From the NCBI GenBank assembly GCA_002433895.1, contig DJJA01000003.1, positions 107,185 through 171,184 of the forward strand: DNA of 64,000 nt. The letters run 5' to 3'. This document shows positions 5,806-44,313 of the stretch, piece by piece. The position numbers and the translations under genes are program-made. The number at the start of each line of letters is the position of its first letter. Position 1 is the first letter of the stretch. The notes under the pieces are model-generated. The model was not told the origin of the DNA, searched no databases, and worked only from the letters and a program-made list of their open reading frames with translations. The stretch is from Candidatus Gottesmanbacteria bacterium UBA6580. Lineage in GTDB: Bacteria > Patescibacteriota > Microgenomatia > UBA10105 > UBA927.

Positions 5806-5915
5806 TTACTTCACTATAGCACACAAAACACAGCCGCCTCGACCGCTTGACAAGCTGAGGCTGGTTGTTTAGTATGTGGACAACTTATCCACAGACTGCT
5901 CTTTACCTCATAAAT

Positions 5916-14319: not shown

Positions 14320-14323
14320 ATAA

Positions 14324-15774: not shown

Positions 15775-17961
15775 ATGAGTGTGTCACCAGTGACGTTGTT
15801 GGAAATTCAAAACGCTAGGGAGAGCGAGGAGTCGCCGCTTGCGATGGAGCAGGTGTTTGCTGCGCTGGGAAGCGGTGGAGCCCACCAGAATATATTCCAG
15901 CGCCTTTTTGGCGGCGGCCATACGCAAGCATCACACTTTAGTCTGGAGATAGTCTCGGTGAATAGTCGGATCCATTTTTTTCTTGCGGCTCCCGATTCAC
16001 TCCGTGAGTATCTCGAGAGCCAGCTCACCGCGCAGTACCCAAGGTTGCTTATTACGAAAATCCCCGACTACATGGAGCATTTTCTTTCGCTTCCACACGC
16101 GTCGGGGCAACTAGTGTACGGGAGCAGCTTTTATTTACCTCTCAAGACATACAAGGACATAAAAGACCTGGATATTCTTTCGGGCGTCGTTGGGCAATTC
16201 GCGAAGTTACAGCCTCAGGAGGCTGTAGCGCTCCAGATACGAGTAGCTCCCGCAGGGAGCGGGTGGCAGCGGTCGATTGCCTCCATGATTGCCAAAGGAG
16301 TGCCCGACCCGAACTCAACCGTTGGGCGCACCAAACAGCACCCGCACGCCAGACTTATGGAAACAAAGATGAACCAGGTGGGTTTTTCAGCGGCGATAAG
16401 GCTTGTCGCTGTTGCGCCAACAGAAGGCCGGGCCAAGCAGGTGCTCCACACGTCCGCAGGTACATTCGGGGTGTACACATCGGGCGAAGGAAACAGCCTG
16501 GTGTTGTCTGAGCCGCAATTTTGGCAAAAAAAGAAATTTGAGCAGTCGTTTTTACTTCGGGGAGATTATTTGCGTCCCCGGTTCCAGGTGTTGGGAGCAA
16601 GCGAGCTATCGTCATTGTGGCATCCGCCCGGCATGGGACTTTCCATGATCAAAAATATTCATTGGGGGGCACGTCTTTTGGGGGAGGCGCCCGCTAACTT
16701 GCCGATTGCGACTGATGATCAGGAAGAAAAACGAAAAATTAATTTTTTTGCAAAAACGGAATACAAAAATACCCCCACCACGTTCGGTGTTAAAAAAGAA
16801 GACCGGAGAAAACACCTCTATGTTATCGGAAAAACTGGCACCGGTAAGTCAACAATGATCGCGAACATGGCAATAAATGATATGAAAAACGGCGAAGGTA
16901 TGGCAGTTATCGATCCACACGGAGATCTCTGTGACATTTTATTACATTATGTACCGTCAAACAGGATAAATGATGTTGCTTACTTGGATCCGTCTGATAT
17001 CGATAACCCGTTTTATTTAAACCCCCTTGAGGTAAAAAATCCGGCGTACCGCGAGTTGATAGCTTCGGGGATCGTGTCGATATTTTATAAGTTGTATCAC
17101 ATGAGTTGGGGGCCGCGGCTTGAGTATATTCTCCGAAACACAATTTTGACCCTAACGCATGTTCCGCAGTCGACATTTCTTGATATACCCGAGCTGCTCA
17201 CCAACGAACGGTTCCGGGAAAAGGTGGTAGAAAAACTTGATGACCGGGTACTCAAAAATTTTTGGCTCAACGAGTTTAATAAGTTGTCTCCACAGCTTAA
17301 AAGCGAGTCGATATCACCAATTCTTAACAAGGTTGGACAATTTCTTTCGTCAAAAACTATTCGAAACATCGTGGGACATCCCACTTCTACCATTGATTTG
17401 GAACACATGATGAACGAGGGGAAGATTGTGATCGTCAATCTTTCTCAGGGGAAGCTCGGGGAAGATAGCAGCGCGTTGTTGGGGGCGATGATTATTACAA
17501 AAATGCAGCTTGCCGCCATGAATAGGGTATATAAATCAGAGGAAGACAGACGGGATTTTTATCTCTATGTCGATGAGTTTCAGAATTTTGCCACGCAGTC
17601 GTTTATAAAGATATTGTCTGAGGCGCGAAAGTACCGTCTAAATCTTTCGCTTGCGAACCAGTATATAGGTCAAATTGATGAAGACGTACAGAAGGCGATT
17701 TTCGGTAACGCAGGCTCAATCGTGTCATTTGCGGTGGGAGCCGCAGACGCGAGGCTTCTGGGGCGTGAATTCGGCGAAAAGTATGAAGAGTCAGAGTTGG
17801 TGGGCCTCGGAAATTTTCAGATAGTCCTAAAGTTATCTATAGACAACCAAACGTCAACGCCGTTTTCGGCAGTTACGTTACCGTTGCCGAAGAGCCGCAA
17901 TGAACATCGTGAGACAGTTATCCGTGTTTCTCGCGAACGGTACACAAAAAAGGTACAATAG
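15775..17961 (+). CDS. type IV coupling-protein-like ATPase (TraG/VirD4/TraD family, TraG-D_C type), no N-terminal TM
   Basis: Walker A YVIGKTGTGKSTMIAN followed by AVIDPHGDL; Walker B / TraG-D_C-like LYVDEFQNFA; divergently transcribed from the virB4 operon; no hydrophobic helices at the N-terminus. Confidence 0.6.
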   Translation: MSVSPVTLLEIQNARESEESPLAMEQVFAALGSGGAHQNIFQRLFGGGHTQASHFSLEIVSVNSRIHFFLAAPDSLREYLESQLTAQYPRLLITKIPDYMEHFLSLPHASGQLVYGSSFYLPLKTYKDIKDLDILSGVVGQFAKLQPQEAVALQIRVAPAGSGWQRSIASMIAKGVPDPNSTVGRTKQHPHARLMETKMNQVGFSAAIRLVAVAPTEGRAKQVLHTSAGTFGVYTSGEGNSLVLSEPQFWQKKKFEQSFLLRGDYLRPRFQVLGASELSSLWHPPGMGLSMIKNIHWGARLLGEAPANLPIATDDQEEKRKINFFAKTEYKNTPTTFGVKKEDRRKHLYVIGKTGTGKSTMIANMAINDMKNGEGMAVIDPHGDLCDILLHYVPSNRINDVAYLDPSDIDNPFYLNPLEVKNPAYRELIASGIVSIFYKLYHMSWGPRLEYILRNTILTLTHVPQSTFLDIPELLTNERFREKVVEKLDDRVLKNFWLNEFNKLSPQLKSESISPILNKVGQFLSSKTIRNIVGHPTSTIDLEHMMNEGKIVIVNLSQGKLGEDSSALLGAMIITKMQLAAMNRVYKSEEDRRDFYLYVDEFQNFATQSFIKILSEARKYRLNLSLANQYIGQIDEDVQKAIFGNAGSIVSFAVGAADARLLGREFGEKYEESELVGLGNFQIVLKLSIDNQTSTPFSAVTLPLPKSRNEHRETVIRVSRERYTKKVQ

Positions 17962-18609: not shown

Positions 18610-21600
18610 ATGGCAAACGAAGAATTATTCAAACGGTTGAGTGAAGCAGCCAAAAAAGCAGCGGAGGGTGGCGGACAGCCAAAGCCGCCAGAGGCCCCGC
18701 CGCCACCAGAAGCTCCCGAAGTGAAGCTTGGAGAGCACAATAAGCAGGCCGGTGCAAAAGAGGTCAATAAGGAGCGGGTCGCAAATCTTGCGGCAAAGCT
18801 TGCTGAGGCAACCTCAGAAACCACAAAACGCCTTGTGGGAAGCGAAGTTGATTTTCCGACCGACGAGCGGGTATTTTCTGTCATCGAATCCCTGATTACC
18901 GCCGATGAGTCGCAGCTTGCGGATCCGGAATACATGCGGGGCATCGGGCAGCAGTTGGTGGCATTGGCAAAAGAGTCGGGGCTAACAAGCCCGACCGCGG
19001 TTGAGGCGCGGCGGTATTTACGGAAAATTGTCGCCGAACACCCGAGTCTTAGTGACCTACAGTATGAAGCTGTACCTATTATAGCTGGGGGATCGGGTAA
19101 ACCGGATGAGGAGGCAAACGACGAAGCGACCGTGGACAAGGATCCGGAACTGACCCAAGAGGTGGGTAGATTATTTAATGAGACCGCTGACACCGATCTA
19201 AAAGACACAGCAATTGCCTCTGACTTGCAGGAGCTTCAGTACCGTTTCCGTGTAGATCCGGGAGCCGCATATGACAGTAGGCTTACCGATGATGCGGTGC
19301 GACGCATGGTTGAAAAGGGGAGGCGCGAAGGGCTTGATCCAAAGCTGGTACAGAAAGCAGTGGAGCGGGTGCGTTATTTTGAGCGGTTCACCGACTTGCG
19401 GCACCAGAAATATCAGGAAAAGCTCCGCGGCGGAAGGAGCGTGGCCTGGTCAGAAATCATGGAAAATTCCCCACAGAAGTCGTTGCACGAGCCGGATGAC
19501 GTGTTTACCGATTTCCGATCCATGCCGCCTGCTGATGTAGAAACCATAATTCAGGGGGACGAGGGCGAGGCGAAGTGGTATTTCGATTTTATTGACCAGA
19601 TTTATTCCATGGGACGGGAAGAAACCCGGCCAAGCCTCACCCATGAACAACGCTTTCAGGAGTTTAAAGATTACCTTGTGTGGAAATATGGTAGTGAGTA
19701 TCACATCGCCGTGCAGATGTATCAGAAGCATTGGGATAGCCGCGGACAATATGAATATGCAGTTAAAGGACTCATGTATAACCCGGGCGACGTGAAAGAC
19801 AGGTTAAAGGCGATGTCGTTGTTGCAGGGGGCTGATCTTGACCACCTTTATAAAAACTTTGACCACTCAAACGAAGCATATAGCTTGTACGAACACGTAT
19901 TGTTTGAGCTTATGGCAACCAAGCGCGCGAAATACGGAGAGGCGCTAAAGTATTTGCGCGAAGACATCACATGGAACGGGAAAACCATGAAGCGCGAAGA
20001 CATCCTCAAAGAGCTCAAAGCGAAGCAGCGGATGGAGGGCTATGACCCGACCAAAGGAAAAACACAAAGTCCTCTCTCTATTGAGGATCAGCGGTTGATG
20101 CACGAAATACAACAGCAGATGGATTTAGCGGCGGAAGGTGTCATGTTGTGGGATGACGACGTGCAAAGTTATACCGAGTTACACATCACCCTTACCAAAT
20201 TGCGGAATAGCCGTGAGCAGCTTCTCAAAAAGAAGAGTGCTGGTACCGCGCTTACTGAAAAAGAGGCGGACCAGCTCGGTGAAATTGACAGGCTATATCA
20301 GATCTATTCCCACCGGGAAGAAATGCTTAATGAAAATTTTACCCAGGAGCTATTGGAAACGCGCGGACTTTCCCCGGTCGACATTGAGGTTCGCAAGCGG
20401 TTGGTGGGCTACCTTAAAGCACAGCATCCGGAAGACCCGAACTACAAACCGGCTGAATATGAAGTCCGTATGGCGTTATGGGCATCACGGACCGCCATGA
20501 TTGGCTCAGGACGCATGGCGATGATTGGCGCCATGATGTCGGTGCCTCCCGCTGTCGAATACGGGACATCGTCAGGTAAGCACGTCATGCGCGCGCCGGC
20601 GTTTGAAGATATCCAGCGTATTTTTAATCCGGAAACATTTGCTACCCGTTTTAATATCGGTGGCGACATGGGTATTACCGCGCGGAGCATATTCCGAAAA
20701 AACTTAATGAGAACGAAAGGGATTAATCCTAAAGAGCCTGGATGGTTTAAGAAAATGTCCGGCGCCGCAGAGAGTTTGGGGCGTAAGTTTAAACTCACCA
20801 AAACGAAAGAATGGCATGAGGCGAAGCATCATGAGCATGACAAGCAGCGGCAGCAGTCGATGGAAACATGGGAGTTTGCCGAGGACGCAACCGGTATATC
20901 ATTTAGCGAGTTGTTGGGTCCTGGATTTATGGCAAGCGGAGGATTTTATGATGGAACCGCGTGGCGTCTGGAAAAGGGAGTGGCAGACGAGCTTCGTGGA
21001 AAAATGCTAAGTCTGAAAAAATTGCCCGAAAACGCCGCGCTTTTGGATAATCAGGCGCTTTCTATACAGCTATTGACCGCGGGAAATGCCGCAGAACGCA
21101 AACCAATACTCGACCGCATGCTGCGGCGGAACCCATCGAAGTTTTTGGAGTTGTTGGAGGAAGATACAGAGCGCATATTGACGAAGAATAAGGTGACACA
21201 CGAAGAGTGGAAGAAGTTTAAAGAAGCACTTTCTCTTGCTGAGCTTAAGATGGCTCACGAGAAAGACTGGCAATTTGCACGTATAGATCTTGCTGAGAAA
21301 AAAGATTTTGATGCATTGGTGGTGCCATATCTCAACATATTGAAGCTTGACCCCGCGCGGAGTGAAAGTCTGCGCCAGGTGATCGTCGATATGCAGGCCG
21401 AAATATATCGCGGCCGCAAAGTTGATGCTTCAGGGGGCACCTTTAATAATAAAATGGACGCTATTGCCGCGCTCAAACTTCCACTCACCATGAGCTTGAC
21501 CGACTTTGATTGGAAAGAATCCAACTTTTACCAACTTGGTACCGTTGCTATGCACCGTCGTATTCGAGATGTCGGCGCACAGATGCGTGCCCGTGACGCG

Positions 21601-22221
21601 ATGCTTGGGTTTTTCTCGAATGAAGAGATGGCGCTCTCACCCAATGACTACACGAAATCGCTGCAAAAGATTATGGAGGTGCGCACCGCTATCGTCGATT
21701 ACTCAGGGCCGGATGCTGCGGAGGCGACCGCAAAAGAAATGTTACGGGTATTTTTTGAGATGAACAGACACAGAAGTCTTGGAAGCATTGCCTGGATACC
21801 GGGACTGACGGGGCTGTTACAGCACTGGGAGCCTGATTTCCGGGGGCTCGAAAACAACAAACTTATGCAGTTGCTGATTGGCAAAGAGCGGTGGCAGCAT
21901 TTAGCGAAAGAAAAGATTTCCCATTGGCCACATTCGGTGGCCGAGGCGATTTCATATTCTACGCGGTACACGGGATCACATGGAAATGTGTGGGATGAGG
22001 CCAAGATGGCGGAAATATTGCACACCGCGCATGATATGGGACTGTTTATTAATCACCCTGAGTACCTCAAGGATCTGGAAAAAGAGTTCAAAACCAGCGC
22101 GACGCACCGGTTGAGTGCGTTGTACCGAAAGTATTGGTGGGTGGTGCTCGCTGCGACGGTTGCTATAGCCATAGAGCGGGCGACGAAGGAGCAGGAGAGT
22201 GGGGGCGGAGGAGGACATTAA
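18610..22221 (+). CDS. large (1203 aa) helical protein of unknown function with Pro/Ala-rich N-terminus and C-terminal TM helix
   Basis: Uninterrupted 3.6-kb ORF; N-terminal QPKPPEAPPPPEAPE; predominantly charged/helical; C-terminal YWWVVLAATVAIAIERA hydrophobic helix followed by a GGGGGH tail; no catalytic motif recognised. Confidence 0.5.
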   Translation: MANEELFKRLSEAAKKAAEGGGQPKPPEAPPPPEAPEVKLGEHNKQAGAKEVNKERVANLAAKLAEATSETTKRLVGSEVDFPTDERVFSVIESLITADESQLADPEYMRGIGQQLVALAKESGLTSPTAVEARRYLRKIVAEHPSLSDLQYEAVPIIAGGSGKPDEEANDEATVDKDPELTQEVGRLFNETADTDLKDTAIASDLQELQYRFRVDPGAAYDSRLTDDAVRRMVEKGRREGLDPKLVQKAVERVRYFERFTDLRHQKYQEKLRGGRSVAWSEIMENSPQKSLHEPDDVFTDFRSMPPADVETIIQGDEGEAKWYFDFIDQIYSMGREETRPSLTHEQRFQEFKDYLVWKYGSEYHIAVQMYQKHWDSRGQYEYAVKGLMYNPGDVKDRLKAMSLLQGADLDHLYKNFDHSNEAYSLYEHVLFELMATKRAKYGEALKYLREDITWNGKTMKREDILKELKAKQRMEGYDPTKGKTQSPLSIEDQRLMHEIQQQMDLAAEGVMLWDDDVQSYTELHITLTKLRNSREQLLKKKSAGTALTEKEADQLGEIDRLYQIYSHREEMLNENFTQELLETRGLSPVDIEVRKRLVGYLKAQHPEDPNYKPAEYEVRMALWASRTAMIGSGRMAMIGAMMSVPPAVEYGTSSGKHVMRAPAFEDIQRIFNPETFATRFNIGGDMGITARSIFRKNLMRTKGINPKEPGWFKKMSGAAESLGRKFKLTKTKEWHEAKHHEHDKQRQQSMETWEFAEDATGISFSELLGPGFMASGGFYDGTAWRLEKGVADELRGKMLSLKKLPENAALLDNQALSIQLLTAGNAAERKPILDRMLRRNPSKFLELLEEDTERILTKNKVTHEEWKKFKEALSLAELKMAHEKDWQFARIDLAEKKDFDALVVPYLNILKLDPARSESLRQVIVDMQAEIYRGRKVDASGGTFNNKMDAIAALKLPLTMSLTDFDWKESNFYQLGTVAMHRRIRDVGAQMRARDAMLGFFSNEEMALSPNDYTKSLQKIMEVRTAIVDYSGPDAAEATAKEMLRVFFEMNRHRSLGSIAWIPGLTGLLQHWEPDFRGLENNKLMQLLIGKERWQHLAKEKISHWPHSVAEAISYSTRYTGSHGNVWDEAKMAEILHTAHDMGLFINHPEYLKDLEKEFKTSATHRLSALYRKYWWVVLAATVAIAIERATKEQESGGGGGH

Positions 22222-22264: not shown

Positions 22265-23872
22265 TTAGTGGCCGCTGCCACCACCAGTAATGGAGCTGAG
22301 GCCTTTATCAGCGCCCTCACGCGCAATTTGCATCGGCGTTCTCGCTTCCGGCTTGTGGCGGAATGCGCTTGCGATAAAGCTCGCCTGATATCCTAGGTTA
22401 AATAGCGTGCCGACTCCTGATCCCAACGGGCCAACGATAGGTCCGATGCCGCCCGGTACGACCGGTTCTGCCTTAAGTGATTTCTGTAGTCCGGCAACAA
22501 TCGTCGGGATAACCATAAGCATGCCTAGGCCTATAAGACCCGCCATGCCATATGTTCCTTCACCCGTTGAAAGTAGGGGAGGCGCCCAAATAGATGTTGC
22601 GGTGTCCTGAGACGTAAGCACCGCGGTGATGAGGAGTAAGAGCACAGTGATAGGAAATACCAGAATTTTTGATAACAAGTTCCGGAACCACGAGTTAAAC
22701 GCGTTTGTTCCAGGAATTGCCTCCATCATCAGCTGGAACGGGGCGGTGAGCAAGGCGATAATGATGTTAATGTAGGCGTCCAAAAGCATAAAGATAAGCC
22801 GGATGACGCCGAAAAGCAAAATGATAAGGAAGATAACCGCAAGCAGCACCGGGCCGCTTGTTAATCCTAATAATGCCCCGCGTAAACCAAACATATAGCC
22901 AATAACTCCGGGAACCACTGTCCAGCCAGCCACTTTCATCGGATCATTCTGTGTAATCATGGTTCCGATATCGTCATATGCCTGAAAGCCGCTGGCAAAA
23001 AAGAACCGTAGGAGCCCGCTAACGCCACCGTTTAAAAGCAGTCCCGTGGCGTTATCCGGATCTGATGTTGTTGATGGAGCAGAAAAGCTCGGCGGCAATA
23101 AATCGATGTTGAGCGTAGTTGCGAGACTTAATAGTCTACCAAGGTTTCCACCTGACGCGCTGTCTACCGCGGAAGCTGAAAGCACGATGGCAAGATACAT
23201 AAGGTCAATCATGGCTCCTACTATGGCATAGGAGAAGGTGACGAGTCCCAACGCTATGACAATTCTCGGGATGGCATTTTGCACGGTAACCACAGTTTTC
23301 GGGTCAATTTTTTTCCGGAACATCACCATGAAGCCAACGACAATTATAATTGCGGCAAGCAGCGCGTAGGCGATGTTCCGAAATGTTTTCCAGAGAGGTA
23401 GCATGCTTTGGAGTCCGGAAAAACCAATGCCCTGCGCTTCTGCTTTGGGCGGCATAAATCCGAGCGTTCTCCCGACGTCCGCAATATATTCCGAGCTCCG
23501 TGCGGGAGGGTGTTGATACATCGCAAGCGTGCTCCGAGCCATGCCTGCAAGCGCGCTTTTTTGATAGCTTAGTCCGATAGGACAATCCGGATATGCAGCG
23601 TCACAGAGTCCGCGAAATCCCACGAGGAGTTGTACCTGGGCGATAGTGGAAGTGCCGGCGTCCCCAACTTGTTTATTAAGTGCTCCCACTTCCGCGGCCT
23701 TCATAAATCCTGCGATGACGCAGTTTACGTCCATAAACCATGTTGCATCATCACATTCATTTGCTGTTGTGGTGGCGCTATCTGCTCCTTGTGCCAGAGC
23801 GGGCACGGGAATAGCAAGAAATACCACAGCGGCAACAATGAACGCCCAAACATACGTTTTGATACGCGACAT
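22265..23872 (-). CDS. VirB6/TrbL-like polytopic T4SS inner-membrane channel protein
   Basis: Signal peptide MSRIKTYVWAFIVAAVVFLAIPVPALAQG, Cys-containing N-terminal periplasmic segment, then at least 7 hydrophobic helices with long Gly/Ala-rich TMs; terminal gene of the pilin array. Confidence 0.5.
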   Translation of the reverse strand: MSRIKTYVWAFIVAAVVFLAIPVPALAQGADSATTTANECDDATWFMDVNCVIAGFMKAAEVGALNKQVGDAGTSTIAQVQLLVGFRGLCDAAYPDCPIGLSYQKSALAGMARSTLAMYQHPPARSSEYIADVGRTLGFMPPKAEAQGIGFSGLQSMLPLWKTFRNIAYALLAAIIIVVGFMVMFRKKIDPKTVVTVQNAIPRIVIALGLVTFSYAIVGAMIDLMYLAIVLSASAVDSASGGNLGRLLSLATTLNIDLLPPSFSAPSTTSDPDNATGLLLNGGVSGLLRFFFASGFQAYDDIGTMITQNDPMKVAGWTVVPGVIGYMFGLRGALLGLTSGPVLLAVIFLIILLFGVIRLIFMLLDAYINIIIALLTAPFQLMMEAIPGTNAFNSWFRNLLSKILVFPITVLLLLITAVLTSQDTATSIWAPPLLSTGEGTYGMAGLIGLGMLMVIPTIVAGLQKSLKAEPVVPGGIGPIVGPLGSGVGTLFNLGYQASFIASAFRHKPEARTPMQIAREGADKGLSSITGGGSGH

Positions 23873-23909
23873 AGTGTAATTATCCGTGATACATTCCGCT
23901 AAAGTCAAT

Positions 23910-24221
23910 CTACTGGGTTATTGTAAAGTCGGTAACTGTGACACCAGTAAATTTTTCTATAGTGAGAATAATAAGATAGGCGACCGACATAAGAATTATT
24001 CCTGCGATGGCCTGGGTGACTGATCCTTTGGCTGCCTCTAGCTTTTTTTGGTCGCCGGCAGAAAACAGGAAATTAAATCCGCCAACAAGAAGCATGACAA
24101 ATAACGCGACCGCGCCTAGTGATACCACTGCCCGAATAACGCCGGTAACAAGGGGGACAATACATTGAATAGAAGCGACACCTTCGGCTCCCGGTATGTT
24201 TGCGCACGCGTCAGAGTTCAT
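23910..24221 (-). CDS. T4SS pilin-like protein (VirB2/TrbC-like two-helix pilin), paralog 1
   Basis: 103 aa, two hydrophobic helices separated by the conserved FSAGDQKKLEAAK..ITQAIAGIILM loop shared by all paralogs. Confidence 0.6.
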   Translation of the reverse strand: MNSDACANIPGAEGVASIQCIVPLVTGVIRAVVSLGAVALFVMLLVGGFNFLFSAGDQKKLEAAKGSVTQAIAGIILMSVAYLIILTIEKFTGVTVTDFTITQ

Positions 24222-24288
24222 ACTGCTATTATACGAGTATCAGAAGAGGGGTGACAAGCACACTTTTCTGTTTTATACGCTTCGTGTT

Positions 24289-24618
24289 TTAGTAAGGCTT
24301 CGGGAAATTAATTGAGCCGCCAATGATCTGGACGCCCAAGAAGTTTTGGACGAGTGTCATAATGGCCCAAGCAGCGCCCACAATGATGAGTCCGACGATT
24401 GCATGGGTAATCTTATTCCGCGCTTCTTCCATGCCTGCCTTGTCGCCACCTGAGGTGATCCATTTAATACCTCCCAAAATGAGGTAAAGAAATGCCAAAA
24501 GCGCTGCGATAATAAGCACGGTTCCGACAAGCGCGCTGATAAGCTTGCCAACATCGGTAATTTTAATGGAATCCGGCTGCTTAATATCTAATGCGGCCTG
24601 GGCAAATACTTTGTTCAT
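24289..24618 (-). CDS. T4SS pilin-like protein, paralog 2
   Basis: 109 aa; GGIKWITSGGDKAGMEEARNKITHAIVGLIIVGAAWAI core between two TM helices. Confidence 0.6.
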   Translation of the reverse strand: MNKVFAQAALDIKQPDSIKITDVGKLISALVGTVLIIAALLAFLYLILGGIKWITSGGDKAGMEEARNKITHAIVGLIIVGAAWAIMTLVQNFLGVQIIGGSINFPKPY

Positions 24619-24703
24619 AAATGAATCCTTTCGTCAAATCAATACAGCCTTTATTATACCATCATTTACCATTTTTGCGCAACAAAACAAGATTTGTCAA
24701 TCC

Positions 24704-25048
24704 CTAGTTAGTGATTGTTGGGATAGGGAGATTCGGGAAATCGATACCAAAAAAGTTACCCACAATCATCATGACTGCCCAGGACGCGCCCACCACGACC
24801 AACCCGACGAGCGCGTTGGTAATTTTGTCACGGGCAGACTGAAGCTTTGTTTTGTCGCCGCCACTTGTTACCCAGTCAAATCCACCGAGGAGCATGTAAA
24901 GAAGAGTAGAGATAAACGCCAAGATAAGGAATAAACCAACAAGCGCGCTGATCAACGAACCGATAGCCAGCGGACCCACTTCGTTGCCGCCTTGCCCGAG
25001 ATTACCGGGAAGAACGGGATTGACGATTTGTGCGAGGTGTCTATTCAT
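24704..25048 (-). CDS. T4SS pilin-like protein, paralog 3
   Basis: 114 aa; GGFDWVTSGGDKTKLQSARDKITNALVGLVVVGASWAV core. Confidence 0.6.
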   Translation of the reverse strand: MNRHLAQIVNPVLPGNLGQGGNEVGPLAIGSLISALVGLFLILAFISTLLYMLLGGFDWVTSGGDKTKLQSARDKITNALVGLVVVGASWAVMMIVGNFFGIDFPNLPIPTITN

Positions 25049-25050
25049 GG

Positions 25051-25416
25051 TTATTGGTTCGGACTGAGTAGTTCCATCAATCCGCTCGGATCAGACAGTG
25101 TGAAGTCAAAACCAAAGAATGTGCTGGCAAGCGCAAGTATTGCCCAGCCAGCGACAACCACGATAAGCCCGACAAACGAGTTGGTAAGCCGGTCTTTTGA
25201 GCTTTGGAGCTTTGCTTTATCTCCGCCGGAGTTAATCCAATTAAATCCTCCAATGACAAACTGAAATAGAAACCATATACCGGCAGCGACGGTCATGATG
25301 CCAATAACAGAAGACACAACCTTGGTAATGCCGGTAAGCCCGTCTCCTGGCGCGTTGCCGAAAGGCCCCAAGCCTTCACCGCCAATTTGTCCTAATTCAA
25401 GCGCTAAGTATTTCAT
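25051..25416 (-). CDS. T4SS pilin-like protein, paralog 4
   Basis: GGFNWINSGGDKAKLQSSKDRLTNSFVGLIVVVAGWAI core; start MKYLALELGQ at 25416 is preferred because it abuts the upstream gene stop (25418). Confidence 0.55.
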   Translation of the reverse strand: MKYLALELGQIGGEGLGPFGNAPGDGLTGITKVVSSVIGIMTVAAGIWFLFQFVIGGFNWINSGGDKAKLQSSKDRLTNSFVGLIVVVAGWAILALASTFFGFDFTLSDPSGLMELLSPNQ

Positions 25417-25417
25417 G

Positions 25418-25777
25418 TTATTCGTTTGGCCCGTAAATTGTCGGATTGAGAATAAAATCCGCCCGTCCAAATATGAGATGCCCAAATAGCGAAGCTATGG
25501 CAAATGATCCAACAATGATAACGAGACCTAAGAGTGATTGCCATATGCGGCTCCATGCCTCAGCAAGTTTTTTGCTGTCGCCCGCGGCGTTCATGTAGTT
25601 GTAACCGGCGATGATGAAATTAAAGAGTGCATATATGCCTGCGGCGACAAATGCCAAGCGGAGGATGTTCGTGATAAACATGCCGACCGCACCGGTTTGT
25701 ATGCTGCCATACCCGGTGCCCGACAACGGGCTTTCTATTGATCCGACGATGTCTCCAACTTGCGCCAATTCTTTCAT
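25418..25777 (-). CDS. T4SS pilin-like protein, paralog 5
   Basis: 119 aa; AGYNYMNAAGDSKKLAEAWSRIWQSLLGLVIIVGSFAI core. Confidence 0.55.
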   Translation of the reverse strand: MKELAQVGDIVGSIESPLSGTGYGSIQTGAVGMFITNILRLAFVAAGIYALFNFIIAGYNYMNAAGDSKKLAEAWSRIWQSLLGLVIIVGSFAIASLFGHLIFGRADFILNPTIYGPNE

Positions 25778-25784
25778 ACAATAA

Positions 25785-26132
25785 TTATTGCGGGCTCAGT
25801 ATGTTTAGACCGGTGATGACCTCTATGATTTGTATGATCCAAAATGAACCCAATACGATAAGAAGTCCCGCTATCGCGCCGGTGAGCGCCGTTTTGCCTT
25901 GCTGCGCTTTTTTTGCGTCTCCCGCGGCTACTATAACGTTAAATCCGCCGAAAATCAACAAAATGAAGCTTAAAATACCAGCAAGCATGAAGGCATTTTT
26001 TACGATGGCGGTCACCAGCATGCCGAAGTTGGTCAAATTCGGATTAGGTGCTAATTCCTGTAATGACTGGGCAAACACGCGTTCAAGCATACATTCATAT
26101 TTAAGTGTAAGGAATTTGCCCGGGTCAGTCAA
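25785..26132 (-). CDS. T4SS pilin-like protein, paralog 6 (first gene of the array)
   Basis: GGFNVIVAAGDAKKAQQGKTALTGAIAGLLIVLGSFWI core; an alternative start MLERVF lies at 26090. Confidence 0.55.
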   Translation of the reverse strand: MTDPGKFLTLKYECMLERVFAQSLQELAPNPNLTNFGMLVTAIVKNAFMLAGILSFILLIFGGFNVIVAAGDAKKAQQGKTALTGAIAGLLIVLGSFWIIQIIEVITGLNILSPQ

Positions 26133-26158: not shown

Positions 26159-26698
26159 ATGAATGACGCAACGCTTATTGCCCGACTATTCGCCCATGAC
26201 CGGCGGGCTGCCGCAGCGTTTTATCAGCAATACGCCCCACAATTGCGCCGCCACATTCTTGCGAAGGTAAAAACCGAAGAGGACGCCGAAGAAATCCTGC
26301 AGGATACGCTTTTTTCATTTTTGGAAGGGCTTAGGGATTTTCAGCAGAAAAGCAGTGTGCGCACATATCTTTTTTCTATTTGCCACCATAAAATTATTGA
26401 TTACTACCGGAGGAAAAAAATAGGGCATTTTGTATTTTCTCAAATGCCACAGCTTGAGATGCTCGTCTCGCCGTTGCTTGGTCCCGAAGCGGAGCTTGAC
26501 GCAACGCTCGTTAAGGAAAAAATACGGCGGGTGCTGGCGCGCATGTTACCGGTTCACCGGCAGGTGCTGATACTTAAATATCTTGATCATGTGTCTGTTG
26601 AAGACATCGCCGAACGGCTCTCCATAACTTTTAAAAGTGCGGAATCGCGGCTCTTTCGGGCAAGACGCGCGTTCGTTGAATTGTTTGTATCGATATAA
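26159..26698 (+). CDS. RNA polymerase sigma-70 factor, ECF subfamily
   Basis: 179 aa; region 2 (YQQYAPQLRRHILAKV ... LQDTLFSF) and region 4 HTH (LILKYLDHVSVEDIAERLSITFKSAESRLFRARRAF). Confidence 0.75.
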   Translation: MNDATLIARLFAHDRRAAAAFYQQYAPQLRRHILAKVKTEEDAEEILQDTLFSFLEGLRDFQQKSSVRTYLFSICHHKIIDYYRRKKIGHFVFSQMPQLEMLVSPLLGPEAELDATLVKEKIRRVLARMLPVHRQVLILKYLDHVSVEDIAERLSITFKSAESRLFRARRAFVELFVSI

Positions 26699-26704
26699 AT
26701 ACTT

Positions 26705-26935
26705 ATGAGTGACGCAACGTACCAAAAATTTGTAAAGCGATGGGAAGAAGTAACTGATATTCCGCCGCAGGCACTCGGGCCATTTACCGGAATCTACAAA
26801 CAAATCACCAAAAGGTTGAAAGTGATGCCGTGGCCATGGTTTGTCGCGGCGAGTATTGGCTTTGTCCTGGCGTTGTATGTTCTTATCGGCTCTACGATCA
26901 CCATCCTCACAAGTTTACTTCAGGGCGGTTTTTAG
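26705..26935 (+). CDS. putative anti-sigma factor (small single-TM protein)
   Basis: 76 aa, cytoplasmic N-terminus then one TM (WFVAASIGFVLALYVLIGSTITIL); immediately downstream of the ECF sigma gene; its 5' coding sequence (ATGAGTGACGCAACG) is nearly identical to that of the sigma gene (ATGAATGACGCAACG). Confidence 0.35.
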   Translation: MSDATYQKFVKRWEEVTDIPPQALGPFTGIYKQITKRLKVMPWPWFVAASIGFVLALYVLIGSTITILTSLLQGGF

Positions 26936-27009
26936 GATTATTGTGGGTATATCATTCCTGTAATAAGGCAACAGCGCGGGTTTTTCGTGCTTTCGTGCGA
27001 CTAACGTAT

Positions 27010-27633
27010 ATGGACCTTATTGGTATGCTTGTTGTGGACGCGGTTGCATTTGGTCGTACCGTGGCGGGTTTAATTATCCGTCCGTACGAAACATATCGGC
27101 GCATCATTAAGCACGGGAAGGTTGGCGAGCTTGTTTTTATTGCGGCCGCGATGGTGCTGTATTTTAGCTTGGCAAGCCTTGTAAAGGTGGCTTCTTTCCG
27201 GCCGTTTTTGTTAACGCAGCAATTTACATTGCTGTTGTGGGCATCAGTAAGCGGGGCACTGCTTTCCGTCGGATGTATTTATGTAACTAGCCGGCTGCTT
27301 CGTGCGCGCACCACTTTTGCGACAGTGCTGATTGCGTGGTCTTACACGCTCATCCCGACTATTTTGTGGTTCCTCACGACATCACTGTTATACGTGATTT
27401 TACCGCCTCCCCGTACGACAAGCGCGCTTGGTATTACATTTAGCCTGCTGTTTTTGATATTTAGCGCGACCCTGTTATGGTGGAAAATAACTCTTTGTTA
27501 TCTCACGCTTCGGTTTAGTCTCAAACTTAATTTAGCAAAAAGCGTGCTGGTTGCGGTTCTATGCGCCCCCGTTCTTGCATGGTGGGCAGTGAATATGTAC
27601 CGATGGGGAGTATTTAAAGTGCCATTTTTATGA
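27010..27633 (+). CDS. polytopic membrane protein (Yip1-like)
   Basis: ATG at 27010 (MDLIGMLVVDAV); 5 hydrophobic helices; ATGA overlap with the HMG-CoA reductase start. Confidence 0.35.
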   Translation: MDLIGMLVVDAVAFGRTVAGLIIRPYETYRRIIKHGKVGELVFIAAAMVLYFSLASLVKVASFRPFLLTQQFTLLLWASVSGALLSVGCIYVTSRLLRARTTFATVLIAWSYTLIPTILWFLTTSLLYVILPPPRTTSALGITFSLLFLIFSATLLWWKITLCYLTLRFSLKLNLAKSVLVAVLCAPVLAWWAVNMYRWGVFKVPFL

Positions 27634-28790
27634 ACATACGGGATTATCAATCGGTGGCAAAACGGCGCGAGGCGGTGGCAAAAGAGCTATCCGTTCCGCT
27701 CGAACATATTGGTTCGTTTACGCTTGATGAAGTTGTTGCAAGCACGAAACATTGTGAAAACATGATAGGAATTGCCCAGGTGCCTATGGGGCTTGCCGGA
27801 CCGCTCACTCTTTTTACATCAGAGGGAACGCGCGTTACTCATTATGTGCCGCTTGCGACGACAGAAGCGGCGCTTGTGGCATCGGTAAGCCGTGGGTGCA
27901 AGGCGATTACCGCAAGCGGGGGAGCTACCGCAGATAGCCATAGAGTGGGAGCAACCCGCGGACCGGTTTTTAAGGTAAGGAATGTAGCAGAAAACAAAAA
28001 ATTACACGATTATTTGGAGCACAATATGCCGCGCCTCAAACAGGTGGCGGAAAAAACATCCGGTCACCTCACCCTCACAGGGGTGAGTTCCGAAGGGGTG
28101 GGACGTTACCGGTACGTGCGGTTTGTTTACGACACACAGGATGCGATGGGGTTAAATATGGTAACTATTGCGACCGACGCCGCTTCAAAGCTCATCGAAG
28201 AGGAAACCGGGGCCGAGTGTGTTGCGCTTTCAGGCAACTTTTGTGTAGACAAGAAACCGTCCTGGAAAAATTTTGTTGAGAACCGGGGCATTAAAGTATG
28301 GGCTGAAGTAGTGCTTACCGAATCCGTGCTCCGTGATGTGCTCAAGACTGACGCCAAACGCGTATATGAAACATGGCTTGCAAAGTGTATGTTGGGAAGC
28401 GCGATGAGCGGATCAATGGGGTTTAATGCACAATACGCTAATATTATAGCCGCTCTTTTTATTGCGACCGGTCAAGATCCCGCGCATACCGTCGAGGGAA
28501 GCGTGGGTATTACCACCGCAGAGGTGATAAACGGTGCCGACCTTTACGTGAGCATATACCTGCCGGATCTTATGGTTGGCACTATTGGTGGAGGCACTGG
28601 ATTAGCAACGCAGAAAGAGGCATTAGGAATTTTGGGGGTTACCGGGGGGACAGGTGGCGAACATGCGACCCGGTTTGCTGAAATTATCGGCGCCACGGTA
28701 CTCGCGGGAGAAATATCATTATTGAGTTCTTTGGAGCAGGGCACATTGGCGCGTGCGCACAGTAAGCTTGCGCGAGGAAAAATTATATGA
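27630..28790 (+). CDS. hmgA: hydroxymethylglutaryl-CoA reductase (class I-like)
   Basis: DAMGLNMVTIATD; catalytic region GTIGGGTGLATQKEALGILGV; ENRGIKVWAEV; about 386 aa soluble catalytic domain. Confidence 0.9.
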   Translation: MNIRDYQSVAKRREAVAKELSVPLEHIGSFTLDEVVASTKHCENMIGIAQVPMGLAGPLTLFTSEGTRVTHYVPLATTEAALVASVSRGCKAITASGGATADSHRVGATRGPVFKVRNVAENKKLHDYLEHNMPRLKQVAEKTSGHLTLTGVSSEGVGRYRYVRFVYDTQDAMGLNMVTIATDAASKLIEEETGAECVALSGNFCVDKKPSWKNFVENRGIKVWAEVVLTESVLRDVLKTDAKRVYETWLAKCMLGSAMSGSMGFNAQYANIIAALFIATGQDPAHTVEGSVGITTAEVINGADLYVSIYLPDLMVGTIGGGTGLATQKEALGILGVTGGTGGEHATRFAEIIGATVLAGEISLLSSLEQGTLARAHSKLARGKII

Positions 28791-29830
28791 TCGGTATCGT
28801 ATCCTATGGTTCATATATACCGCGTTGCCGTATTCCGATTGCGGATATCGCCCGCGCATGGAAAAAAGATGCTAAAGAAGTGGTCCATTCGTTGGGTCTT
28901 ACGGATAAATCAGTGCCCGCGTTTGATGAAGACGCCGCCACGATCGCAATCGAGTCAGCACTATCGTGTTTCGCGCCATTTCATGGCGATCCAACCGATA
29001 TCGACGTGTTATTTGTCGGGAGCGAGAGTCATCCGTACGCCGTTAATCCAACATCAACCATTGTCGGGGAGTTGTTAGGGTTGGGGAATGCCTATCTTGC
29101 CGCTGATTTGGAGTTTGCCTGTAAGGCGGGAACCGCTGCCATGCAGGCAATCGCCGGCTTAGTGGCTGCGGGGCACGCGAAATACGGACTGGCGATCGGC
29201 GCTGACACCGCACAGGGCAAGCCGCATGATTTTTTGGAGTATACGGCGGCAGCCGGAGGAGCTGCTTTTTTGTTGGGAAGTGACCATGTCGCCGCGCGTC
29301 TTTTGGCAGACACTTCCTATTCATCAGACACGCCTGATTTTTGGCGTAGGGATGGTATGCGCTATCCGTCACATGCAGGCAGATTTACGGGAGAGCCCGC
29401 GTATTACAGTCATGTTATGGGCGCCGCGTCACGATTATTTGAGATGACGGGCACAACCGCAGCCGATTACGATTACTGTATTTTTCATATGCCAAACGGC
29501 AAATTCCCGCGGGAGGTGGCAAAACGCCTGGGATTTTCCCGGGAGCAACTCGAGCCGTCACTGCTTGTTGATCATATTGGAAACGCTTATAGCGCAACGA
29601 CGATGTTGGCACTTTCCGCAGTGCTTGATATTGCCCGTGCTGGCCAAAAAATATTTATGGTTTCGTATGGCTCAGGGGCGGGGAGCGACGCGTTTGTATG
29701 GGAGACAACGAGTGAGCTAAATAAAATACAGCAAGTGAGGGAGAAAAAAACATTACGCGTCTCTGATGCCATTAGCAAAAAAACATACGTTGATTATATC
29801 CAGTTTTTAAAATTAACCCATAAATTATGA
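28787..29830 (+). CDS. hydroxymethylglutaryl-CoA synthase (archaeal-type)
   Basis: MIGIVSYGSYIPRCRIPIADIARAW N-terminus and Cys-containing thiolase-fold active-site region (EFACKAGTAAM); translationally coupled to the flanking genes. Confidence 0.85.
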   Translation: MIGIVSYGSYIPRCRIPIADIARAWKKDAKEVVHSLGLTDKSVPAFDEDAATIAIESALSCFAPFHGDPTDIDVLFVGSESHPYAVNPTSTIVGELLGLGNAYLAADLEFACKAGTAAMQAIAGLVAAGHAKYGLAIGADTAQGKPHDFLEYTAAAGGAAFLLGSDHVAARLLADTSYSSDTPDFWRRDGMRYPSHAGRFTGEPAYYSHVMGAASRLFEMTGTTAADYDYCIFHMPNGKFPREVAKRLGFSREQLEPSLLVDHIGNAYSATTMLALSAVLDIARAGQKIFMVSYGSGAGSDAFVWETTSELNKIQQVREKKTLRVSDAISKKTYVDYIQFLKLTHKL

Positions 29831-30966
29831 AAATTTTTGTAAACGGCGCCGCCACAACGCAGTTCGGTGAATTATGGGGCGTATCGCCCCGGTCACTGGC
29901 ACGCGGGTCTGTCTCGAGTGCGTTAAAAGATGCCCGTATTGAGAGCGCCCAGGTGGAGGCGTTGTTTGTGGGCAACATGCTTTCCGGAATGCTTGGTGGT
30001 CAGGAACATTTGGGAGCGTTTTTTGCCGAGGAACTCGGGTTACCGGTCCCGGCATTTAAAGTAGAAGGAGCTTGTGCATCAGGAGGGTTAGCACTTCATA
30101 ATGCGGTCAACAGTTTGCTTTCAGGCCAATACGCTACTGTGGTGGTATTGGGGATAGAAAAAATGACCGACCATAAACCGGAGGATGTAGCAACGGCGCT
30201 GATGGGAGCGGGGAGTGAGGAGGAGCGAAACGCCGGAGCGACGTTCCCGGGGCTATACGCCATTTTAGCCCGTATGCATATGAATGAATTTGGCACGACC
30301 GAGGAGCAGTTAGCAGCAGTCGCGGTCAAAAATCATTACCACGCAAGCTTAAATCCTAACGCCCAGTTTCATAATCTGCTTACCGTGGAGCAGGTAATGA
30401 GAAGCAGTAGGGTAGCAGATCCACTGAAGTTATTGGATTGCTCTCCAATTTCGGATGGCGCCGCCGCGGTGGTGTTGAGCACAAAAAACATAAAAGGCAG
30501 CGTTGAGGTTGCCGCGTCGGTGGTTGCGACCGACACCCTGGGGCTCGCGCAACGAGCTCACCTAACGCAGCTTACCGCAACGCAGCGCGCAGCAGAAAAA
30601 GCGTACCGCATTGCCGGTCTCACCGCAGGCCAGGTAAGTGTGGCAGAGGTGCATGATTGTTTTACGGTAGCTGAAGTGTTAGCGATGGAAGACTTAGGAT
30701 TTTTTCCGCGGGGGAAAGCGGCAGCGGCGATCGAAAAAGGGGAGACGAGGCTGGGAACGTCAGCGGGTATTGTGGTAAATCCGTCCGGAGGACTGAAGGG
30801 GTGCGGACATCCCGTGGGAGCCACCGGAGTAAAACAGGTTGTCGAGCTTGTGGATCAGCTGCGCGGATCCGCGGGGAAGCGGCAGGTAGAGAACGCGACC
30901 ATCGGACTTGCACATAATGTCGGAGGAAGCGGGGCAACCGCTGTTGTACATATTCTTAAAAAATAA
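29827..30966 (+). CDS. acetyl-CoA acetyltransferase (archaeal-type thiolase)
   Basis: Thiolase-like fold with VEGACASGGLALHNAVNSLLSG active-site Cys region and C-terminal GHPVGATG motif. Confidence 0.85.
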   Translation: MKIFVNGAATTQFGELWGVSPRSLARGSVSSALKDARIESAQVEALFVGNMLSGMLGGQEHLGAFFAEELGLPVPAFKVEGACASGGLALHNAVNSLLSGQYATVVVLGIEKMTDHKPEDVATALMGAGSEEERNAGATFPGLYAILARMHMNEFGTTEEQLAAVAVKNHYHASLNPNAQFHNLLTVEQVMRSSRVADPLKLLDCSPISDGAAAVVLSTKNIKGSVEVAASVVATDTLGLAQRAHLTQLTATQRAAEKAYRIAGLTAGQVSVAEVHDCFTVAEVLAMEDLGFFPRGKAAAAIEKGETRLGTSAGIVVNPSGGLKGCGHPVGATGVKQVVELVDQLRGSAGKRQVENATIGLAHNVGGSGATAVVHILKK

Positions 30967-30967
30967 T

Positions 30968-31270
30968 ATGCAATCACCGGTTAAAATTTGGCGGAACCAA
31001 AAAAATATCGCGAGCCTCGTGGGAAAAACGGGGAAGATATTGTCCTGGACAATTGTCCGTGTGCCGCCCGGGGATTTCACCGACCAGGCGCCGTATCCGG
31101 TGGTACTCGTCGAGTTGGAGAGCGGCAAACGGGTGACGTGTCAGCTGGTTGATTATGATGACGCCCATTTGACGTTTGGGCAGAGGGTGGTGACGATTAT
31201 CCGGCGCGTGACGCACCCTGATCCTGACGGCGTTATTCCCTACGGCATTAAAGCTAAACCATTGGTATGA
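30968..31270 (+). CDS. DUF35-family OB-fold protein (thiolase/HMGS complex partner), lacks Zn-ribbon
   Basis: 100-aa ORF starting 1 nt after the thiolase stop; ILSWTIVRVPP..YPVVLVELESGKRVTCQLVD resembles the OB-fold part of archaeal DUF35 scaffold proteins; no CxxC pairs are present. Confidence 0.6.
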   Translation: MQSPVKIWRNQKNIASLVGKTGKILSWTIVRVPPGDFTDQAPYPVVLVELESGKRVTCQLVDYDDAHLTFGQRVVTIIRRVTHPDPDGVIPYGIKAKPLV

Positions 31271-32217
31271 AAAAAGTAACCGTATCTGCTCCTGGCAAGC
31301 TTCATCTATCGGGCGAGCACGCCGTTGTGTATGGTAAACCGGCGTTAGTTGTTGCTACGTCGTTGCGGTTATACACCACATTAGAAACAGGAGCCGGTGC
31401 CACGTTGCTCCGTAAGATGCGCAAAAACGACCGGTATATCGAAGCCATATCGGCAGCGTTTGAAAAAAAATATGGAGCGTCAATTAAGGATGATGTGGGT
31501 ATCACGATTACTTCTTCAATCCCTATAGGAAGCGGCATGGGGTCATCGTCTGCGCTCGCGGTGTCTTTGTCGGGCGCGCTTTGTGTGTGGCATGGTATGC
31601 CGTGGAACCCTCAAGCCGTAAACGATATTGCGTACCAGGCAGAAAAGACAATATACAAAGGCAGTTCCGGAAGTGATCCTGCTGTCTCTACCCACGGCGG
31701 CATCCTATGGTATAGGAAAGAACTGGAGTTCTTGAAAACCCTGTGGCTGTTGCCCTTTAAAATTCCCAAAACATTTGCGCCGTTTGTGCTTATTAATACC
31801 GGAAGAAAAGAAAGCACGGGCGATTTAGTGGCGCACGTTGGTGAGGGAAAAAAGAGAGATGAGAAGAAATTTGCCGTCCTTTTGGACGCAGTGGAAAAGG
31901 TGACAAAACAAACCGCGCAATCAATTCACGATGAAGACGAGAAGGGTTTCCGCCGGTCAATTTCGGAAAATGAACAGTATCTCGAGGAAATGGGCATCGT
32001 GTCCGCACCTGTCCGGGCGTTTATCCGGGCGGTTGAGGAAGCAGGAGGGGTTGCAAAAATCAGCGGCGCCGGAGGGATACAAACAGGCTCCGGGGTGGTG
32101 GTCGCTATCCACGATACGGCACAGAAAATTATTGCTCTGGCAAAAAAGAGAAAATACGAGACATTCCAGGTGGTATTGGGCGGAGAGGGTGTAAAAATGG
32201 AGCAAGCAACAGCATGA
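31267..32217 (+). CDS. mevalonate kinase (GHMP kinase)
   Basis: N-terminal SAPGKLHLSGEHAVVYGKPALV and ATP-binding PIGSGMGSSSALAVS GHMP motif. Confidence 0.8.
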   Translation: MKKVTVSAPGKLHLSGEHAVVYGKPALVVATSLRLYTTLETGAGATLLRKMRKNDRYIEAISAAFEKKYGASIKDDVGITITSSIPIGSGMGSSSALAVSLSGALCVWHGMPWNPQAVNDIAYQAEKTIYKGSSGSDPAVSTHGGILWYRKELEFLKTLWLLPFKIPKTFAPFVLINTGRKESTGDLVAHVGEGKKRDEKKFAVLLDAVEKVTKQTAQSIHDEDEKGFRRSISENEQYLEEMGIVSAPVRAFIRAVEEAGGVAKISGAGGIQTGSGVVVAIHDTAQKIIALAKKRKYETFQVVLGGEGVKMEQATA

Positions 32218-34111: not shown

Positions 34112-34117
34112 CATGTT

Positions 34118-35154: not shown

Positions 35155-35156
35155 AG

Positions 35157-35630: not shown

Positions 35631-35712
35631 GCTTCTTAAGTGTAGCAAATTATGCGGTATAAGAAAAGACGAGGGGTAGAGTTTCATGGGTCTGGTACAA
35701 TGGAAAGACCTT

Positions 35713-44259: not shown

Positions 44260-44313
44260 ACTGCGTCCTAACCAGAACGCAAATTATGAATAGGCCCTCT
44301 TTTTTATGTGTTG

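Follow-up and report, generated by a model that had tools for sequence, protein, structure and literature searches.

A large part of bacterial diversity belongs to the Patescibacteria, which live attached to host cells; the locus described here holds a series of small, divergent pilin-like genes in one of them. The locus lies in a stretch of 64,000 nucleotides (the window) from contig DJJA01000003.1 of Candidatus Gottesmanbacteria bacterium UBA6580, in which six such genes stand in tandem (23910-26132) and two more stand ~9 kb away. A preliminary description of this DNA had offered two readings of the series, an antigenic- or host-variation repertoire and a heteropolymeric pilus. We found that the eight genes are true paralogs of the VirB2-like pilin family of type IV secretion systems (T4SSs), that is, T4SS_pilin (PF18895), and that they stand in the context of a T4SS. 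By its sequence this T4SS of Candidatus Gottesmanbacteria (Microgenomatia) is chromosomal, lies near the origin, and is similar to the machinery for conjugation in monoderm bacteria. The orthology of the paralogs is fixed, they are under purifying selection, one of them (E) is exceptionally conserved, and separate conserved promoter-like elements precede different parts of the series. The family membership, the T4SS context, the fixed orthology and the purifying selection suggest that the paralogs act within one assembly and cannot replace one another. In our judgment, the eight proteins (A-H) are probably structural subunits of a fixed multi-subunit T4SS assembly, in which E would be the major subunit and the others would be specialized; of the two earlier readings, the sequence comparisons thus favored the heteropolymeric, or multi-subunit, pilus.

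All eight open reading frames (ORFs) were present on the minus strand, and the names A-H were assigned in transcription order. The tandem array consists of A (ORF 25785-26132, likely 25785-26090), which is the first gene of an A-D operon, B (25418-25777), C (25051-25416), D (24704-25048), E (24289-24618), and F (23910-24221), the last being directly upstream of a gene for a polytopic membrane protein. The separate pair comprises H (35157-35630), which has a Sec-type signal peptide and a four-Cys N-terminal extension, and G (34804-35154), the second gene of the pair. The ORF of A remains open as far as TTG 26132; because that TTG belongs to the -35 hexamer of the A promoter and the orthologs agree, the true start of A is probably ATG 26090 (MLERVFAQ...). 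The encoded proteins range from 101/103 to 157 aa, close to the 103-158 aa given previously, and hydropathy analysis revealed two hydrophobic segments around a polar loop in each of the eight, in agreement with the two-helix topology that had been proposed.

Pfam PF18895 was matched by all eight proteins (E-values from 1e-10 to 1.5e-4). The gathering score of 26.6 bits was passed by E, which gave the best match (42.1 bits), and by G (29.0 bits), H (28.6 bits), and F (27.3 bits), and A-D fell just under it at 22.2-25.4 bits (E-values of 1.5e-4 for A, 3.1e-5 for B, and 1.5e-5 for C); all eight also matched the NCBIfam model NF045849 weakly, at 16-29 bits versus a cutoff of 40. Pairwise identity among the paralogs was 18-52% with a mean of 30%, the upper value being that between D and its closest paralog E, so the six contiguous and the two contiguous genes form arrays of low mutual identity in the sense of a published survey, which counts pilin genes that are in tandem or have a single gene between them (PMC12102498). 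A nearly invariant inter-helix core had been claimed for the whole set. The homology of this core was real, yet "nearly invariant" overstated it: the alignment contains five invariant columns, and the proposed motif of 22 specified positions was exact in C and D, had two mismatches in E, and had five to seven in A, B, F, G, and H.

Given that the proteins are short and hydrophobic and that A-D lie slightly below the Pfam gathering score, they might be taken for unrelated small membrane proteins whose likeness is a compositional artefact of transmembrane helices. When hidden Markov models (HMMs) were built with one paralog left out, however, the omitted paralog was recovered with E-values of 1e-12 to 1e-28 (1e-19 to 1e-28 for A-D; 3.6e-25 for A), compared with 0.03-0.6 for the best unrelated ORF among the 836 others, many membrane proteins among them. 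Furthermore, the conserved signal takes in the polar loop (S/A-G-D-x-K-K), the same two curated families are matched by all eight proteins, and the T4SS context is conserved. Transmembrane composition as the source of the likeness was ruled out by the leave-one-out test, and we give this explanation next to no credence; the HMM searches placed all eight proteins in PF18895 and not in some unrelated family of small membrane proteins. An HMM of the eight paralogs recovered those eight alone among the 844 ORFs of the window, with no partial copies. The word "pilin" in the preliminary description holds for VirB2-like pilins (PF18895) in a T4SS locus and not for type IV pili: the eight sequences contain no G|FxxxE motif of a class III signal and have two hydrophobic helices instead, and the eight proteins gave no N_methyl or type IV pilus pilin-domain match in Pfam.

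We then addressed whether the set is constant among relatives. The membrane protein adjoining F retrieved 36 genome loci, of which UBA5942 was the closest (94%) and most carry the label Candidatus Gottesmanbacteria; 32 of the 36 had enough upstream DNA. Metagenome loci were collected in a scan seeded on the alignment of E, the eight-paralog alignment being too divergent as a seed; the 31 loci of at least 9 kb were counted, and genes were classed by orthogroup HMMs and BLAST. Many of the metagenome-assembled genome records with a Gottesmanbacteria-type locus (L002, L004, L005, L009, L014, and L016 in our numbering, among others; protein identity up to 85%) are titled "uncultured Gammaproteobacteria bacterium," apparently a mislabel. 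Exactly six pilin genes preceded the membrane protein in 31 of the 32 genome loci, and best-hit assignment gave the order A-B-C-D-E-F in all of those, even where the neighbor proteins were only 35-45% identical; orthologs of A were found in 30 genome loci. The same six-gene order was found in 20 of the 31 metagenome loci, and F was the last array gene throughout. The substitution-rate comparison that the preliminary description had suggested for the paralogs was run on orthologs, because synonymous sites are saturated between paralogs at ~30% identity. The ratio of nonsynonymous to synonymous substitution rates (dN/dS) was 0.00-0.14 for each of A-F against the nearest genomes (0.03-0.07 for B), with dS between orthologs often above 1 or undefined, which indicated purifying selection.

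These results bear directly on the idea that exchangeable pilus subunits diversify the cell surface for evasion or for attachment to different host strains. Such a repertoire would fit the low identity among the paralogs, the divergence of their tails beyond that of their cores, the array sizes of 2-11 genes across the phylum (PMC12102498), and the seven- and two-gene arrays of distant lineages. However, copy number and order are fixed within the lineage, with one-to-one orthologs in ~50 loci; dN/dS did not exceed 0.14 for any of the genes, the closest genomes included; and paralog-specific tail motifs are kept across genomes. Neither silent nor partial cassettes turned up in the HMM scan of the window, and repeats were likewise not noticed. 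The pilins of Southlakia epibionticum have moreover been reported as essential, contrary to redundancy (PMC10633639). The fixed six-gene order, the low dN/dS, and the conserved tail motifs thus contradict an antigenic- or host-variation repertoire in this lineage, and we regard that reading as very improbable.

The comparison also bears on the two paralogs outside the array. As noted in the preliminary description, H and G (34804-35630) stand ~9 kb from the other six, with the gene of an extracytoplasmic function (ECF) sigma factor and a mevalonate block in between. H-like or G-like genes occur upstream of the array in ~10 other loci (G-like in L034, L065, L083, L088, L100, and L117; H-like in L034, L083, L088, L093, L096, L099, L100, and L105). 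Both are present in L034, L083, L088, and L100, and in L083 they are contiguous with A. Because of this contiguity, the eight paralogs belong together, and the separation of H-G by the sigma/mevalonate block is a rearrangement. At the other extreme, L106 and L107 (7932-10188) contain an E-like and an F-like pilin only, followed by a VirB6L-like gene at 32% identity; this E+F arrangement may be the ancestral minimal one. In a Saccharibacteria locus (L035), VirB4, PrgI, and TrsD are present, and no pilin match was obtained within the 15 kb examined.

Among the six array genes, E stood apart. Mean identity within its orthogroup was 81%, versus 58-65% for the other paralogs (65% for B and 60% for C), and conservation of its loop and second transmembrane helix reached 92-93%. 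E is the most conserved member, and its dN was the lowest, ~3-5 times below that of the others. More than 1200 E homologs were found in the databases, the top 120 at 73-95% identity. PF26067 is precomputed on many E orthologs. From its conservation, we infer that E is likely the major subunit.

The T4SS context was equally constant. The polytopic membrane protein directly downstream of F (22265-23872, minus strand; 535 aa from ATG 23872), which has a signal peptide ending in ALAQ, adjoins the array in all 36 genome loci. It had no match in Pfam, NCBIfam, or a PDB sequence search, and from its position and the published arrays (PMC12102498) we presume that it is VirB6/PrgH-like. Four further T4SS genes lie 6-14 kb from the array on the same contig, within the +/-20-gene window of that survey (PMC12102498). 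They encode a VirB4-like ATPase of the CD1110 family (11748-13679, minus strand; NF045971 at 402.6 bits versus a cutoff of 325, with the Pfam TraG P-loop and AAA_10 domains), a TrsD/TraD-like protein corresponding to an N-terminal VirB4-associated part (13657-14385, minus strand; NF041427 at an E-value of 1e-4, below cutoff, and syntenic in ~25 loci), a PrgI (VirB3-like) protein with a C-terminal CarboxypepD_reg-like domain (14324-15652, minus strand; PF12666 at 1.8e-5, and PF13620), and a VirD4-like coupling protein (15775-17961, plus strand; Pfam TrwB_AAD_bind, TraG-D_C, and DUF87, with a weak match to NF045973). Two of these genes are unusual in form: the TrsD-like ORF (242 aa) is separate from VirB4 and overlaps the VirB4 ORF by 23 nt (13657-15652 region), and the PrgI/VirB3-like protein with its CarboxypepD_reg-like C-terminus is unusually long, at 442 aa. 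A protein with an M23 peptidase domain (9583-11742, minus strand; PF01551 at 3.7e-9) is likely the cell-wall hydrolase of the secretion system, judging from its domain.

The T4SS genes have dnaA (5865-7283) and dnaN (7465-8571) as immediate neighbors, which places the locus and its array near the origin; proximity to dnaA has been reported for some Patescibacteria (PMC12102498). Other housekeeping genes in the window include dnaG, rpoD, and typA. The ~45 larger ORFs scanned across the window yielded a coupling protein and no relaxase domain. In ~30 loci the entire arrangement is syntenic, namely the mevalonate operon, the ECF sigma factor, six pilins, the membrane protein, a 1203-aa ORF, a cytidylyltransferase, the type IV coupling protein, PrgI, the TrsD-like protein, and VirB4. 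Since this whole arrangement is conserved, we concluded that the locus is part of the core chromosome and not a mobile element.

How the genes are expressed was approached through promoter-like elements, which were called as consensus matches and supported by positional conservation only. The intergenic gaps within A-D are 1-7 nt; E is separated from D by 85 nt and F from E by 67 nt. The promoter-like site of the A-D operon (26104-26132, minus strand) reads TTGACT-17-TACACT, extended to TACACTTAA, and TTGAC-N17-TACACT is conserved. TACACTTAA is common to A and H, ~10 nt ahead of their starts, and occurs three times in the window versus 0.31 expected, two of the copies being just upstream of these two genes. 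The third copy (63206-63214, minus strand) falls within a sulfatase ORF on the plus strand, probably by chance. The layout ahead of E (24653-24700, minus strand) is different: TTGACA (24700-24695) and TATAAT (24658-24653) are followed by a Shine-Dalgarno (SD) sequence and enclose TTGCGCAAAAAT (24682-24671), which contains the palindrome TTGCGCAA, in the layout TTGACA-N12-TTGCGCAAAAAT-N12-TATAAT. Of 32 loci, 21 had this architecture and 30 had an SD-like sequence, and TTGCGCAAnAAT, which holds the palindrome, occurred exactly once per locus in 18 loci, always ahead of E. The palindrome is perfect and sits between the -35-like and -10-like elements, and the uniqueness of TTGCGCAAnAAT in those 18 loci suggests the operator of a regulator. 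In seven distant loci a terminator-like hairpin follows E.

F carries yet another signal (24228-24257, minus strand), TTGTCA-18-TATAAT with an 11/12 match, which leaves 6 nt between the end of its -10 element and the ATG. Among 33 F sequences, a -10-like hexamer was found 4-10 nt before the start in 20, and an SD-like sequence was found in one. Because the -10 element is so close to the ATG and an SD-like sequence is nearly absent, these features suggest that the F mRNA is leaderless. The same layout precedes the 535-aa membrane protein (23872-23908), where a -10-like hexamer stops 6 nt short of the ATG and an SD sequence is lacking, so the transcripts of both F and the membrane protein are probably leaderless. 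Divergent from A, an ECF-type sigma factor (26159-26698, plus strand; Sigma70_r2/r4_2 matches) and beside it a 76-aa membrane protein (26705-26935, plus strand), a possible anti-sigma factor, adjoin the array in ~30 loci and form a candidate regulator pair. A Yip1-domain membrane protein completes this 26159-27633 block, a neighborhood likewise kept in ~30 loci.

Such signals could mean that different pilins are used at different stages, free or swarmer versus host-attached, through separate promoters for A-D, E, F, and H-G together with the ECF sigma factor. The distinct promoter architectures, with TACACTTAA in A and H, TTGCGCAA unique to E, and a leaderless-looking F, point in this direction, as does the pair of sigma factor and small membrane protein divergent from A in ~30 loci; in TM7x, some T4SS genes shift their expression from the initial encounter to stable symbiosis (bioRxiv 10.1101/2022.03.25.485537). 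Stage-specific use, however, is compatible with multi-subunit assembly and does not exclude it, and the promoter calls behind it are consensus matches. As the explanation of the eight paralogs, we consider it unlikely.

At the protein level, the AlphaFold2 model of E was a helical hairpin with helices at residues 20-55 and 60-94 and a loop at 56-59, in which 49 residues had a predicted local distance difference test score (pLDDT) of at least 90. The N-termini of A-G have the form M-x-x-(x)-[LF]-A-Q and lack a hydrophobic h-region, and with 0-5 codons between the start and the preceding stop there is no room for an h-region upstream. In H, the sole paralog of the eight with such a leader, a full signal peptide ends at the aligned position (AYA|E). 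The E-like gene of L107 has a full leader ending in AVYAQ|G, and the leader of the neighboring membrane protein ends in ALAQ|G. Because of these three leader ends, the short N-termini of A-G appear to be what is left of a signal-peptide cleavage region. The four-Cys N-terminal module ascribed to H was located at Cys 46, 56, 59, and 71.

The previously noted divergence of N- and C-termini was upheld, in that tails were less conserved than cores (0.36-0.61 versus 0.54-0.93 across orthogroups); nevertheless, the tails are not hypervariable. Particular motifs are conserved in particular paralogs, NPTIYGP at the C-terminus of B, GGEGLGPFG at the N-terminus of C, and LAQxxNPVLP at the N-terminus of D. 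The N-terminal tail of F contains a Cys-x13-Cys loop, and a Cys-x9-17-Cys arrangement was found in 21 of 33 F sequences, the window included.

The lack of a cleavable signal peptide in seven of the eight proteins would also suit a structure without any extracellular filament, in which the hairpins stay in the cytoplasmic membrane around the VirB6-like protein as a channel. Monoderm T4SSs have generally been described as lacking pili (PMC12102498, PMC12857230), and the closest named relatives of A-H are "pilin-like" proteins from integrative and conjugative elements (ICEs) of the wall-less Mycoplasma. On the other hand, a simple channel lining would hardly seem to require six to eight conserved paralogs whose conserved hydrophilic tails measure 20-45 residues, and pilus-like appendages have been reported on ultrasmall cells of the candidate phyla radiation (CPR) (cited in bioRxiv 10.1101/2022.03.25.485537). 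We view a channel alone as rather unlikely, though somewhat less so than stage-specific use.

We thus proposed the following model for the multi-subunit assembly, in which co-assembly, topology, filament formation, the major role of E, and the function of the system are predicted from the sequences. The eight are not interchangeable: A-F are six ancient paralogs, one-to-one orthologous among relatives, which together would build a pilus or a cell-wall-spanning conduit on the adjacent, presumed VirB6-like protein, powered by VirB4. E would be the major, core-forming subunit, and A-D, F, and H-G would be lower-abundance subunits with roles in initiation, at the tip, at the base, or as adaptors. 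The helix-loop-helix core (GGF..SGGDxxK) would serve packing and recognition by the machine, and outward-facing N- and C-terminal tails would carry the paralog-specific motifs. The logic would be akin to that of type II secretion with its major and minor pseudopilins. A bolder form of the model, which we put forward only tentatively and hold to be doubtful, is an obligately heteromeric T4SS filament or conduit, the first for any T4SS. In this form, E would be the major subunit and five to seven minor subunits would replace the VirB5 tip/initiation complex and bridge to the VirB6-like platform; E+F would be ancestral, with A-D and H-G as later, lineage-specific additions. If true, the major/minor-pilin logic would be convergent with that of type II secretion and type IV pili.

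Several observations tell against the multi-subunit assembly. The set is fixed within the Gottesmanbacteria-type lineage and not phylum-wide: distant lineages have seven genes, with an extra D/E-like copy, or two, and orthology there is less clear. The conservation of E and its own promoter could fit an essential low-copy adaptor equally well. Promoter-like sites in the whole region numbered 6, versus 5.9 in shuffled sequence. Kinship with classical pilins was not recovered: hhalign against four annotated VirB2/TrbC proteins gave a probability of 0.7%, the VirB2 alignment being narrow (effective number of sequences, Neff, 1.8), and the best match of the eight to Pfam TrbC had an E-value of 0.067. 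The fold search was uninformative, the fold being a simple hairpin. Seven of the eight proteins have no signal peptide, unlike VirB2, so their membrane insertion and topology are assumed. Their export, polymerization, and filament formation are likewise predictions of the model.

The comparison reveals no new kind of system; it narrows the hypotheses. In the sole genetically tractable species, the T4SS and its pilin array are essential, and a fixed, ordered, purifying-selected set with an outstanding E shifts the expectation from a variation repertoire to a multi-subunit machine. Concrete targets can now be named, namely E and the minimal pair E+F.

Several neighbors of the array deserve mention in their own right. 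The 1203-aa ORF (18610-22221, plus strand), which separates the VirB6-like gene from that of the coupling protein, keeps its synteny in many related loci, where its identity is 23-94%. Neither this ORF nor a 396-aa ORF had a match in Pfam or NCBIfam; the former could be an unrecognized T4SS component or an adhesin. The mevalonate operon (27630-34801) encodes HMG-CoA reductase, two kinases, a decarboxylase, and undecaprenyl pyrophosphate (UPP) synthase, together with an archaeal-style trio of an HMG-CoA synthase-like protein (28787-29830), a thiolase (29827-30966), and an oligonucleotide/oligosaccharide-binding (OB)-fold DUF35/ChsH2_C protein (30908-31270), and it is syntenic with the pilin array in ~28 Gottesmanbacteria loci. 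Divergent from H is a gene for a SpoIID-domain protein with a signal peptide and a coiled-coil N-terminus (35686-37476, plus strand), which also neighbors H-like genes in L034 and L099. Two sulfatase-family proteins and one arylsulfotransferase-family protein (42952-45981 and 61976-63466) are unexpected in a small-genome CPR bacterium.

Sets of small subunits that are all needed together are familiar from type II secretion and type IV pili, in which major and minor members are combined (GspG with GspH-K; PilA with the minor pilins). By analogy, the Gottesmanbacteria set would resemble them as a fixed, ordered series of small paralogs in which orthologs correspond one to one and a single major member is highly conserved. 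The family and the machine are unrelated, however, and the present proteins have no class III (G|F...E) signal peptide or prepilin peptidase motif, so the analogy is functional only. Like the classical VirB2/TrbC/TraA pilins of the T-pilus and F-pilus (PF04956), the eight proteins are small, have a short basic loop joining two hydrophobic helices, and are encoded within a T4SS cluster. They differ in that seven of the eight lack a long cleavable leader and in that multiple obligate paralogs take the place of one major pilin; the host, moreover, is a monoderm that lacks an outer-membrane core complex and VirB5. A PDB search with the pilin profile returned no pilin, only chance matches such as designed proteins and EmrE. 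Closer relatives are the "Mbov_0395 family pilin-like conjugal transfer proteins" of Mycoplasma ICEs (PF18895/NF045849), which have the same two-helix hairpin, short polar loop, and monoderm-type VirB4, although A-H score under the NF045849 cutoff. Because all eight match this family weakly, the sequences hint that the hairpin proteins originated within the monoderm T4SS lineage itself instead of being acquired from diderm systems.

In Bartonella and Anaplasma phagocytophilum, too, several VirB2 paralogs are divergent tandem genes in a host-interaction T4SS (cited in PMC12102498); as presented there, they are read as antigenic or host-adaptation variation, whereas the Gottesmanbacteria genes are fixed orthologs under purifying selection. 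The nearest counterparts are found among the Patescibacteria themselves. Quinonero-Coronel et al. (2025) surveyed 3,035 Patescibacteria genomes with the same Pfam model, PF18895, and found VirB2-like pilins near virB4 in 1,135 assemblies and 441 arrays of 2-11 pilin genes with a mean identity of 25%, notably in Microgenomatia and Saccharimonadia, often near dnaA and usually without a relaxase; antigenic variation or host-range versatility was speculated by analogy with the Bartonella/Anaplasma VirB2 paralogs (PMC12102498). As far as text searches of the Patescibacteria papers went, strict positional orthology, purifying selection, and a privileged E are not stated there. The present Gottesmanbacteria locus had no individual description before. 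In Southlakia epibionticum ML1, the T4SS and its pilin series were essential (Wang et al. 2023; PMC10633639), the homologous Saccharibacteria system being required for epibiotic growth, and six divergent pilins have been counted in its T4SS locus (2025 review, PMC12857230), the same number as in the present array; a coupling protein is recognizable here and was reported absent there. Apart from the H-G pair, which in the window is split from the array by the ECF sigma factor and the mevalonate block, the likeness to the surveyed arrays extends to the tandem divergent PF18895 genes (mean identity of 25% as published and 30% here), the chromosomal MPF_FATA-like locus near dnaA, and the absence of a relaxase among the ORFs scanned. 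Taken together, these comparisons indicate that the Gottesmanbacteria locus is an instance of the published array type.

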